Program-made: the position numbers and the translations under genes
Shown: positions 3,677 through 56,490 of the stretch, in pieces
How the letters are laid out: each line of letters begins with the position of its first letter
Position numbering within the stretch: position 1 is the stretch's first letter
The notes under the pieces: generated by a model
Seen by the model: only the letters and a program-made list of their open reading frames with translations
The model's database searches: none
What the model was told of the DNA's origin: nothing
Source: Escherichia phage OES_C-1
Direction: 5' to 3' (one strand)
Sequence record: PQ553088
DNA: 64,000 nt

Positions 3677-6817
<3,141 letters not shown>

Positions 6818-52239: not shown

Positions 52240-52456
52240 ATTGTTTTTCCGTTAAAACAGTAATATCATAGTAACAATCAGAAGAAGTTTTAACTGTAGA
52301 AATTTTATTATCAAAATACTCACGAGTCATTTTATGAGTATAATATTTTTTGCCATAAATGACAATAGGTTGATTTGGTCCTGGAACTTCTAACTCGCTT
52401 GGGTTAGGAAGTGTAAAAAGAACTACACCAGAAGTATCTTTAAATCGTAAAATCAT
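52193..52456 (-). CDS. hypothetical protein (nrdA.2 position)
   Basis: 87-aa ORF. Confidence 0.5.
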
Positions 52457-52479
52457 ATATCCTCACAATTAATAATTAA

Positions 52480-52791
52480 TTACACCGCCATTTTTCCTTT
52501 AATAGGAGGGTGTGATTCGTAACCTTTAAGAACGAAATCTTTAGGCCTGAGTTTAAGAACATATTCCAATTGTTCTTTAGTAGAAAGATAGCGGAATTTA
52601 TAAGGCAATCCGCCTATTACCAGTTCACAAAGCTCTTTAGGTTCACGACGCAAAATTTCTTTACATTGTTCTACGTGATTCATATAGATATGAGTATTAC
52701 CGCCAGAAAATATCAAATCTCCAGGAATAAGATTACACATCTTAGCTACAATATGAACTAACGCAGCATATGATGCAATATTAAATGGAAG
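52480..52791 (-). CDS. td: thymidylate synthase, exon 2
   Basis: Exon 2 begins LPFNIASY...; joined to exon 1 gives 286 aa. Confidence 0.9.
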   Translation of the reverse strand, partial: LPFNIASYAALVHIVAKMCNLIPGDLIFSGGNTHIYMNHVEQCKEILRREPKELCELVIGGLPYKFRYLSTKEQLEYVLKLRPKDFVLKGYESHPPIKGKMAV

Positions 52792-53807
52792 CATTATGTT
52801 CAGATAAGGTCGTTAATCTTACCCCGGAATTATATCCAGCTGCATGTCACCATGCAGATCAGACTATATCTCCAACTTGTTAAAGCAAGTTGTCTATCGT
52901 TTCGAGTCACTTGACCCTACTCCCCAAAGGGATAGTCGTTAGGCATTTATGTAGAACCAATTCCATTTATCAGATTTTACACGATAAGTAACTAATCCAG
53001 ACGAAATTTTAAAATGTCTAGCTGCATCTGCTGCACAATCAAAAATAACCCCATCACATGAAATCTTTTTAATATTACTAGGCTTTTTACCTTTCATCTT
53101 TTCTGATATTTTAGATTTAGTTATGTCTGAATGCTTATGATTAAAGAATGAATTATTTTCACCTGAACGATTTCTGCATTTACTACAAGTATAAGCAGAA
53201 GTTTGTATGCGAACACCGCACTTACAAAACTTATGGGTTTCTGGATTCCAACGCCCGTTTTTACTTCCGGGTTTACTGTAAAGAGCTTTCCGACCATCAG
53301 GTCCAAGTTTAAGCATCTTAGCTTTAACAGTTTCAGAACGTTTCTTAATAATTTCTTCTTTTAATGGATGCGTAGAACATGTATCACCAAACGTTGCATC
53401 AGCAATATTGTATCCATTAATTTTAGAATTAAGCTCTTTAATCCAAAAATTTTCTCGTTCAATAATCAAATCTTTCTCATATGGAATTTCTTCCAAAATA
53501 GAACATTCAAACACATTACCATGTTTGTTAAAAGACCTCTGAAGCTTTATAGAAGAATGGCATCCTTTTTCTAAATCTTTAAAATGCCTCTTCCATCTCT
53601 TTTCAAAATCTTTAGCACTTCCTACATATACTTTATTGTTTAAAGTATTTTTAATCTGATAAATTCCGCTTTTCATAAATACCTCTTTAAATATAGAAGT
53701 ATTTATTAAAGGGCAGTCCTACAATTTAGCACGGGATTGTCTACTAGAGAGGTTCCCCGTTTAGATAGATTACAAGTATAAGTCACCTTATACTCAGGCC
53801 TCAATTA
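52792..53807 (-). mobile_element. group I self-splicing intron in td (1016 nt) carrying the I-TevI ORF
   Basis: Intron 5' end UAAUUGAGGCCUGAGUAUAAGGUGACUUAUACUUG... recognised; exon 1 ends ...UUGGGU; length 1016 nt. Confidence 0.9.
52939..53676 (-). CDS. intron-encoded GIY-YIG homing endonuclease I-TevI
   Basis: 245 aa; N-terminal GIYQIKN...YVGSA GIY-YIG module and C-terminal DNA-binding region. Confidence 0.9.
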   Translation of the reverse strand: MKSGIYQIKNTLNNKVYVGSAKDFEKRWKRHFKDLEKGCHSSIKLQRSFNKHGNVFECSILEEIPYEKDLIIERENFWIKELNSKINGYNIADATFGDTCSTHPLKEEIIKKRSETVKAKMLKLGPDGRKALYSKPGSKNGRWNPETHKFCKCGVRIQTSAYTCSKCRNRSGENNSFFNHKHSDITKSKISEKMKGKKPSNIKKISCDGVIFDCAADAARHFKISSGLVTYRVKSDKWNWFYINA

Positions 53808-54356
53808 ACCCAAGAAAACATCTACTGATCGTTGATACCACTGCAAATCCAAATAGCCATTACGCACATTAAACTGATAGAACATATGACAAGGTGGTAA
53901 TGCCATTTGCTTGAGTTCAGCTGGATTCCATGCTGAAACAACTTGACGTCTATCATTTGGCTGTTTTTTAATACGATCAATAACTTCTACAATTTGGTCT
54001 ACACCGCCAAAATCACGCCATTGTTTTCCATAAATTGGACCAAGTTCACCACTATGATATCCTAAATCTTTTGCTTGATTTTCGTAATTTTCATCCCAGA
54101 CTGTTTTGCCTTGAATTAATGAATCGTGTTGAATTAATCGTAAATCATTGACATTTGTGCTTCCTGATAAAAACCAAAGTAGCTCAGCAATGCAAGCTTT
54201 CCAGGCGAGCTTCTTAGTTGTTACTGCAGGAAAACCTTTACTTAAATCCCAGCGTAATTTAGTACCGAACAAAGCAATTGTTCCTGTGCCTGTTCGGTCA
54301 TCAGTTTCATAGCCATTTTCAAAAATGTCTTTAATTAAATCTTGGTATTGTTTCAT
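53808..54356 (-). CDS. td: thymidylate synthase, exon 1
   Basis: 183 codons ending ...QRSVDVFLG; active-site PCH motif (LPPCHMFYQFNV). Confidence 0.9.
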
Positions 54357-54401
54357 TTAGTACCTTATATAAATTATAATACATTTTATGAAGCTAAATA
54401 A

Positions 54402-54761
54402 TCAATACGGTTTAGCGTCAAATTTTCTTTCAATTTCAGGCGTGAAATATAATTCTTTACCACGTTTGGAAAAGCGACCAATAATATGATAATTATTCTC
54501 ATCAAACGTGATATTGCCAATATCCATAGCTTTCAACCAAATATCGATATTTCTGTCAAGCTTTATATCAAAATTCCAATACGGAGAACTATTACCGAAA
54601 ATACTGCAAGCGGATTCAGTGAAACAACTACTATAAATCTTGTCTTTAGGAACTACTAATTGATAGACGCCTTTAATAAACTGAGGACCTTTCCATTTTG
54701 GCTGTTTCGCGTCTTTTTCTAATAGAATAGGGTAATAATTAAAGCTCATATTTTCCGCCAC
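54402..54761 (-). CDS. hypothetical protein inserted between frd and td
   Basis: 119-aa ORF from GTG 54761 (115 aa from ATG 54749); no recognisable motif. Confidence 0.5.
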   Translation of the reverse strand: MAENMSFNYYPILLEKDAKQPKWKGPQFIKGVYQLVVPKDKIYSSCFTESACSIFGNSSPYWNFDIKLDRNIDIWLKAMDIGNITFDENNYHIIGRFSKRGKELYFTPEIERKFDAKPY

Positions 54762-54769
54762 GTGTTATT

Positions 54770-55360
<591 letters not shown>

Positions 55361-55603
55361 TCAAACAGACTTTTTCACAATTTTCCAATCAGCTTTAAAC
55401 TGTTCAACGTCAGAATGATAAATCCAGAATCCTGCGCTTTCTCCATCCTCATAAAGAGGGCATCCATCGCATTCATCTTCCCATCCCATATCACGTAAAA
55501 GATGTTCAGCTTTTTCAACAAGTTCAGAATCTTTACCGATGATATTAAAATACCATTTACCTTTAACTTCTGAATCTTTGATGCTTTGGCGTTGTAATCT
55601 CAT
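55361..55603 (-). CDS. hypothetical protein (frd.1 position)
   Basis: 80-aa ORF; early promoter-like motif upstream. Confidence 0.5.
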   Translation of the reverse strand: MRLQRQSIKDSEVKGKWYFNIIGKDSELVEKAEHLLRDMGWEDECDGCPLYEDGESAGFWIYHSDVEQFKADWKIVKKSV

Positions 55604-55712
55604 TTTATTCTCCTTAGCAAGCTTTAATCAAAAGGTATAAGCAAACTAACATAACTGCTACCATAATATAAGGTGCGAACATTTTCTTTTCTCCATTAGT
55701 TTTGATAGGGTA

Positions 55713-55742
55713 ATAGTATCACACTACTACCCTTCTGTAAAC
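55713..55742 (-). promoter_or_regulatory. early promoter-like GTTTAC-N18-TACTAT upstream of frd.1 ORF
   Basis: Minus strand GTTTAC at 55737-55742 overlapping frd.2 stop; TACTAT at 55713-55718. Confidence 0.45.
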
Positions 55743-56143
55743 TACTTTTTGAAAGTTTTTCGCAAAAGTTCAATGATTTCATCTACATTGTTTTCGTCAA
55801 CAATGCAGTGAATTTTTGTTACACCAGAAACCTTGTCTTCGACTTCATCTTCTTCAGAAGTCGGTTCTTTATACTCGCGGAAACAATAAAACTCTTCTTC
55901 ACTAAGTTCAAAATAATCATCACCCATACCATCATCATTATAGATTTCGCCATTAGCACAAATGATTTCAGTTACATAATCAAAGCCATCTAAACTTGAT
56001 ATTGATTTAACTTCAAACCAACCACCATTTTCTTGAATGATGCCGACCATATTAGCATTTGATGAACTAATATCAATGAAAGATTTAATACGATGTGGAT
56101 TTAACTCATATTTTTTGCCGATTTCCATTTTGATTTTCCTCAT
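55742..56143 (-). CDS. hypothetical protein (frd.2 position)
   Basis: 133-aa acidic ORF. Confidence 0.5.
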   Translation of the reverse strand: MRKIKMEIGKKYELNPHRIKSFIDISSSNANMVGIIQENGGWFEVKSISSLDGFDYVTEIICANGEIYNDDGMGDDYFELSEEEFYCFREYKEPTSEEDEVEDKVSGVTKIHCIVDENNVDEIIELLRKTFKK

Positions 56144-56173
56144 TTTAACGGGACTGTAATAGCCCCTTGATAA

Positions 56174-56422
56174 TTATTGTTCAATCAGTCCCATATAAAA
56201 TTCTGCGTCTTCAGCATCCATGCCATCGCAATATTCATTAGCCATAAAGCGGGTGAGGTCTTCAAGAGGACCTTCAATAACGATTTGAATACTCCAAAAC
56301 TTAGAATCTTGTACGCTTGTGATACTAAGTTCAGGATAACGATTACGAATAATTTCTTCAATATATTCAAAATCAACGATGTCAATATCAACTTTAGCCA
56401 TATTATTTTCCTCTTTAATCAT
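56174..56422 (-). CDS. hypothetical protein (frd.3 position)
   Basis: 82-aa ORF. Confidence 0.5.
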
Positions 56423-56490
56423 CAGCAGTATTGCCGATAGTTGTATAGTACCATAGAAGAACAGAGATGTAAACAGTTTTGTGAAAAATT

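Follow-up and report, generated by a model that had tools for sequence, protein, structure and literature searches.

A conserved PHROG 1928 gene between frd and td in Escherichia phage OES_C-1 and its probable loss from T4

Introduction

In phage T4, the gene of dihydrofolate reductase (frd) runs directly into the gene of thymidylate synthase (td). The annotation of NC_000866 gives the two coding sequences a 4-bp overlap with no open reading frame (ORF) between them, and no ortholog of the gene described here is found at this position. Relatives such as T2, T6, RB14, RB18 and RB27 carry one small gene at the junction, which is named RB32ORF229c in the T6 and RB14 records. About 360 Tequatrovirus records annotate this gene as a hypothetical protein, and a literature search returned nothing relevant on its function, on polymorphism of the frd/td junction or on the name RB32ORF229c itself.

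The locus considered here is a segment of a Tequatrovirus genome, namely the frd-td region within a 64-kb window (the whole stretch of DNA analysed) of Escherichia phage OES_C-1. An earlier sequence-only reading of this window described the T4 overlap correctly and interpreted the extra ORF between frd and td as an insertion of a lineage-specific accessory gene. The comparison of the locus with other T4-like phages reverses this order of events. The conclusions that the ORF is a real gene, that it belongs to PHROG 1928, that it occupies an ancestral slot and that it was lost in T4 are held with good confidence. The ORF is an already-known, annotated hypothetical gene, and no member of PHROG 1928 has a function assigned by experiment or annotation.

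The frd-td Region of the Window

All features of the locus lie on the minus strand, and the segment from 54200 to 54950 matches Escherichia phage OES_C-2 (PQ642263) at 100% identity. The upstream neighbour, frd, encodes 193 aa at 54770-55351, as given by the ORF list and the annotations of relatives. The downstream neighbour is td exon 1 at 53808-54356, the exon boundary being taken from the T4 and T6 annotation and from the intronless td of T2. The gap between them (54357-54769) measures 413 bp and contains one long ORF, which ends at 54402. This agrees with the first description of about 410 bp with a same-strand ORF of 115-119 aa, and both proposed start codons are present. Translation from the ATG at 54749 to the stop codon at 54402-54404 gives 115 aa (coding sequence 54402-54749, stop included; 13.6 kDa, pI 8.8), while the GTG at 54761 gives 119 aa. 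The coding sequence is supported by the ORF list, the match to PHROG 1928, the annotation of PQ642263 and T6, the dN/dS values and the AlphaFold2 (AF2) model.

The ATG at 54749 is likely the better start codon. It is preferred because a predicted Shine-Dalgarno (SD)-like GGCGG (54755-54759) stands before it with a 5-nt spacer, because the annotated coding sequence of the identical record PQ642263 starts at the equivalent ATG, and because the N-termini of homologues read M-(S/N)-F-N-Y-Y, so that most close homologues fit this start. The possible 4-codon extension from the GTG (54750-54761) is not favoured, as no SD-like sequence precedes it; among close homologues, P0002 is the only one with a 4-residue extension.

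The surroundings of the gene pair vary as well. The td gene of the window (52480-54356) is split by a group I intron, as in T4 and T6, which is expected at 52792-53807 by T4 homology and encodes I-TevI, a 245-aa GIY-YIG endonuclease (ORF 52939-53676). The Rfam search of 52300-55500 at the gathering score gave no family over the threshold, the td intron included. The td of T2 is intronless, yet the frd-td ORF is present, and thus the intron and the ORF vary independently. The region upstream of frd (55352-56450; loci L001, L014 and L031) also differs between phages. It holds one 80-aa ORF in the window (55361-55603), ending 9 bp before frd, one extra 80-aa ORF in Lutter and KMB39, two extra ORFs (RB32ORF231c and RB51ORF237) in T6, and a 255-bp gap in T2.

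Family, Distribution and Earlier Annotation

The product of the frd-td ORF is a member of PHROG 1928, whose function is not assigned (E 9.3e-36, residues 8-115 aligned to positions 2-125 of the 126-position profile). The hallmarks of the family, a Q-x-K-W motif and a G-R-F-x-K-x-G hairpin, are both present (Q16, W19, G91, F93, K95, G97). The tblastn search with this protein found 576 phage records, 362 of them at 90% identity or above and 214 below 60%. The latter group (27-45% identity) comes mostly from phages of Klebsiella and other non-Escherichia enterobacterial hosts. The approximately 362 close copies, set against some 514-536 records with the frd-td region in Tequatrovirus, mean that about two thirds of this genus carry the gene. 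Such a distribution, together with the presence in other genera, does not fit the lineage-specific accessory gene of the sequence-only reading.

An exhaustive profile search across 1.84 billion representative proteins returned 40 matches in all, two of them artefactual; the family is therefore small and, as far as the genomic context can be checked, confined to T4-like phages. The two artefacts (P0033 and P0046) are HYR / PA14 repeat proteins with spurious additive matches. Paralogues of the ORF elsewhere were found neither in the 64-kb window nor in the 9-kb locus of T4.

Several GenBank records carry other labels for the ORF (PQ571308, MN580668, MZ501052, PV287714 and OQ466432), which name it an adenylyltransferase, a homing endonuclease or a dihydrofolate reductase; none of these labels is backed by Pfam or NCBIfam profile searches. 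The glucose-1-phosphate adenylyltransferase of PQ571308 and MN580668 can be rejected, as neither Pfam nor NCBIfam detects an NTP_transferase domain and 115 aa are too few. The 'putative homing endonuclease' of MZ501052 shows no GIY-YIG, HNH or LAGLIDADG motif and no Pfam match at E <= 10. A homing endonuclease or mobile cassette is further rejected by the lack of conserved catalytic-type residues and by the fixed slot across genera, rather than sporadic sites.

Two members of the collection deviate from the usual form. In PP434423 (Escherichia phage 236Ecol005PP, H78), the tblastn match spans residues 1-106 only and may represent a truncated or frameshifted copy. The 195-aa protein P0012, from a 100-kb contig of NCBI origin, is chimeric. 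Its last ~35 residues are nearly exact to the C-terminus of the Jiaodavirus-type P0008, and its N-terminal 160 residues are unrelated and have no Pfam match; in some Klebsiella phage, the gene may have been fused to another sequence or disrupted.

Selection on the Gene

The strength of constraint was estimated by pairwise Nei-Gojobori dN/dS among the copies of the window, T2, Lutter, KMB39 and OLB35. The values for the frd-td ORF are 0.01-0.06 at dS of 0.18-1.05, and for frd and td exon 1 the same method gives 0.09-0.23 and 0.04-0.12, respectively. Purifying selection on the ORF is therefore stronger than on frd, so that the small gene is more tightly constrained than the gene of dihydrofolate reductase next to it. 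The doubt that the ORF might be without conservation is thus answered by both its 576 records and its low dN/dS.

Synteny in Other Genera and a Tandem Paralogue

The positions of frd, td and family members were mapped by a script over 32 loci, 29 of which hold the family. In 28 of these 29 loci, the family member follows frd directly and in the same orientation, and td comes after it in each of the 27 among them whose contig is long enough to include that gene. The slot after frd and before td is occupied by a homologue in PEi20 (Kanagawavirus), Mineola (Jiaodavirus), P545 (Marfavirus) and CHI14 (Winklervirus), in the metagenomic contigs L008, L009, L011 and L012, and in the IMG/VR loci L016-L030. 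The homologues in these other genera and contigs share 20-45% identity, and their junction sequences differ. The synteny thus extends over five or more genera and over metagenomic relatives. The homologues usually overlap the stop or the start of their neighbours, and overlaps with frd and td are present in PEi20, Mineola, P545 and CHI14. The sole member without an adjacent frd is the gene at 5001-5420 of a Logan contig (SRR22022328; L010), where no frd occurs within 5 kb upstream. The genes before it are NadR-like (CTP_transf_like + AAA_28) and PnuC-like (NMN_transporter), and the contig stops just behind it.

In part of these loci, the slot contains a second ORF of ~113-135 aa, arranged in tandem directly after the first. 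This ORF is related to the family (hhalign probability 99.4%, E 1.4e-21). The two forms can be told apart by an insertion of about 20 residues, 'WALVI.G..PTIDQYKRNP', after the QKxW motif; the form with the insertion is referred to as B-type and the form like the ORF of the window as A-type. The B-type and the distant family members also match PHROG 1928. The copy number of the slot varies accordingly. Two copies (A + B) are present in PEi20, P545, CHI14, L009, L011, L012 and several IMG/VR loci. A single A-type copy is present in the window, T2, T6 and Mineola, a single B-type copy in L008, and no copy in T4 and RB69. The ancestral arrangement probably consisted of two paralogues, of which the T2-type Tequatrovirus phages, including the window, and Jiaodavirus keep A only, and the T4-type phages and RB69 none.

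Loss of the Gene in T4

The outgroup synteny in the frd-td slot indicates that the presence of the ORF is ancestral, and the ORF is regarded as an ordinary gene that T4-like phages inherit vertically. The junction sequences describe how it may have disappeared. On the coding strand, both the window and T2 hold two copies of the 9-mer TAAATGAAA, which stand 417 bp apart. By sequence comparison, the first copy lies across the stop codon of frd (54768-54776, minus strand) and the second across the start codon of td (54351-54359, minus strand). T4 keeps one copy of TAAATGAAA, flanked by frd-type sequence on the left and by td-type sequence on the right, and this arrangement results in the ATGA overlap. 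The same single-copy junction and 4-bp overlap of frd and td are found in RB69 (Mosigvirus), though the flanks have diverged, and the T4-type junction without the ORF is also present in HY03, SG1 and JEP6. Read at the level of these junctions, T4 and RB69 are exactly what a 417-bp deletion between the two TAAATGAAA copies would leave.

The loss in T4, rather than a gain in the window, is supported by three lines of evidence: the frd-td synteny, the divergence of the ORF, whose dS matches that of its frd and td neighbours, and the repeat-deletion junction. The frd/td overlap of T4 is the derived scar of a gene loss and not the original state. An alignment of frd-td junctions had been proposed to date an insertion; the junctions of the window, T2, T4 and RB69 fit a deletion.

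The opposite order, in which an accessory gene was recently inserted into an ancestral overlap and the 9-bp repeats are its target-site duplication, is very improbable. This explanation draws on the overlapped junction that T4 and RB69, members of two genera, have in common, on the direct repeats that bound the segment and on the variability of the region around frd. It is largely refuted by the homologues in the same slot of Kanagawavirus, Jiaodavirus, Marfavirus, Winklervirus and metagenomic T4-like contigs. An insertion is further contradicted by the equal dS of the ORF and its neighbours, by the presence of the gene in two thirds of Tequatrovirus records, and by the segment itself, which lacks genes of mobility such as a transposase or an endonuclease.

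Under the deletion, the ORF-less allele may have arisen once and spread by recombination, or may have arisen repeatedly at the same microhomology, as the diverged flanks of RB69 hint. OLB35 (MH992122, L013), classed as Mosigvirus, carries a Tequatrovirus-like frd-ORF-td block with 92% amino acid identity in the ORF, whereas RB69 has no ORF; this block in a Mosigvirus suggests that the frd-td region is exchanged between genera. The frd of OLB35 contains a 2-nt indel, which adds 12 codons and produces an overlap with the start of the ORF.

The textbook overlap of T4 is derived, and T4 should not be taken as the ancestral form of the frd/td operon. The points that are possibly new are the polarity of this overlap, the proposed ancestral state with two paralogues, and how strongly the gene is constrained.

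Expression Signals

Between the stop codon of the ORF and td, a consensus scan predicts a promoter-like TTGATT-18-TATTAT, and a search by regular expression a relaxed MotA-box-like AGCTTCA-12-TAATTT (54371-54405, minus strand); a strict MotA box was not found at this site. A predicted AAGG SD sequence for td follows, and all these elements are absent from T4. In phage Lutter, a promoter is annotated at the equivalent place. The deletion in T4 may therefore also have cost td its own ribosome-binding site and promoter-like sequence, insofar as these predicted signals are real.

The late-promoter consensus TATAAATA does not occur near the frd-td ORF. This, together with the overlaps of the family gene with frd and td in most genera, points to early expression and co-transcription with the two enzymes. 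The product would be made early, from a pre-replicative polycistronic message shared with dihydrofolate reductase and thymidylate synthase, and in similar amounts, and in most genera the family gene would be translationally coupled to frd and td.

Protein Features and Predicted Structure

The ORF product is hydrophilic (GRAVY -0.53) and basic, and this composition agrees with the earlier statement that it has no transmembrane segment or signal peptide. It was also said to contain no recognisable motif; indeed, searches of Pfam, NCBIfam, PADLOC and PDB sequences, with both the single protein and profiles, gave no match. The PADLOC models describe defence systems and not counter-defence, which makes the null result there uninformative on anti-defence.

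The AlphaFold2 prediction, made with a 44-sequence alignment, has a pLDDT of 91.7 and a pTM of 0.84. The predicted elements are, in order, strands 6-12, 27-34, 38-40, 48-50 and 62-64, a helix at 68-77, and strands 80-82, 86-96 and 99-104. In the alignment, W19, G91, K95 and G97 are invariant and Q16, Y29, G27, F93 and F102 nearly so, and no conserved Asp, Glu, His, Cys or Ser is found across the 44 sequences. The domain size within the family is 105-139 aa. From the model, the product is inferred to be a soluble, basic, single-domain and beta-rich protein, with an order of strands and helix compatible with an OB-like barrel.

Possible Function and Alternative Explanations

The absence of the gene from T4 and RB69 shows that it is dispensable. 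It is unlikely to be central to thymidylate synthesis, given that RB69 and one third of the Tequatrovirus phages live without it. The most economical reading, tentative as to the specific mechanism, is that the product would be a non-catalytic accessory protein of the nucleotide-synthesis/replication module, acting by binding and not by catalysis. Binding is preferred to enzymatic activity because of the lack of conserved residues of catalytic type, the small domain, and the aromatic and basic residues in the loop and hairpin. The candidate binding face would comprise Y29, the conserved loop with Q16 and W19, and the hairpin G91-R-F93-x-K95-x-G97. Possible partners are nucleic acids, nucleotides and proteins of the nucleotide-synthesis or replication machinery; binding of nucleic acid may use the OB-like face. 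The function modulated in this way would be dispensable under the laboratory conditions of T4.

A more far-reaching version, which is improbable, regards PHROG 1928 as an unrecognised non-catalytic part of the T-even thymidylate/dNTP machinery with a new or divergent OB-like fold. The protein might then link the two enzymes, dihydrofolate reductase and thymidylate synthase, with the replisome or with nucleic acid, or regulate the expression of td and frd, and the A and B paralogues might act as a pair. If this is true, T4 has hidden a component of dNTP synthesis from 60 years of genetics by deleting its gene.

The absence in T4-type phages agrees just as well with an accessory role, for instance in anti-defence or in interaction with the host. 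In the main rival explanation, which is possible but doubtful, the product is an anti-defence or host-takeover protein, that is, a small early protein that neutralises a host factor by binding. Such a role would account for the dispensability in some hosts and for copy numbers of 0, 1 and 2. It also suits a small, non-enzymatic-looking and probably early gene, which is polymorphic in presence and copy number and without which T4 grows. However, the dN/dS of 0.01-0.06 and the strict synteny with frd and td are unlike the fast-evolving, shuffled loci of anti-defence genes, and no characterised protein was matched.

The location between dihydrofolate reductase and thymidylate synthase, to which the gene would be translationally coupled in several genera, could also indicate an unrecognised folate or thymidylate enzyme. 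This is highly unlikely, as the conserved residues are only W, K, G, Q, Y and F, with no acidic residue, His, Cys or Ser among them, the domain of 105-139 aa is small and has no similarity to any enzyme fold, and T4 and RB69 run the same pathway without the gene. The explanation that the ORF is spurious and the AT-rich gap no more than a spacer, for which only the small size speaks, is refuted to near certainty by the profile matches, the dN/dS of 0.01-0.06 and the confident structure prediction.

The gene itself is a well-defined target: a small, confidently modelled family under very strong constraint, locked between dihydrofolate reductase and thymidylate synthase in T4-like genera, with natural variants of zero, one and two copies available for comparison. 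The gene had been singled out as the best candidate in the window for an uncharacterised function. It is indeed uncharacterised, but it is not set apart from many other conserved hypothetical genes of T-even phages, and the main value of the analysis is corrective.

Comparison with Known Systems

At the level of the fold, the predicted product may be compared with nucleic-acid-binding OB-fold domains, such as S1, HIN, RPA/Teb1/Cdc13 and the N-terminal domain of RecO. The predicted order of strands and helix would be compatible with a barrel of this kind; no OB-family profile of Pfam (S1, tRNA_anti, SSB, CSD) matches the ORF product or any of the 44 family members.

At the level of the gene, the ORF is the same as the PHROG 1928 gene RB32ORF229c of T2, T6, RB14, RB32, AR1 and other phages, with the same position and length. 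The protein is 96-99% identical to the T2, T6 and RB copies, and the DNA is 100% identical to PQ642263.

At the level of the operon, the closest described arrangement is that of T4. Its flanking genes are shared with the window at 94-96% protein identity, and TAAATGAAA stands at the junction in both. T4 differs by the absence of the 417 bp that bear the ORF, the promoter-like sequence and the putative AAGG ribosome-binding site of td, and in T4, unlike the window, the start codon of td lies within the last bases of frd.
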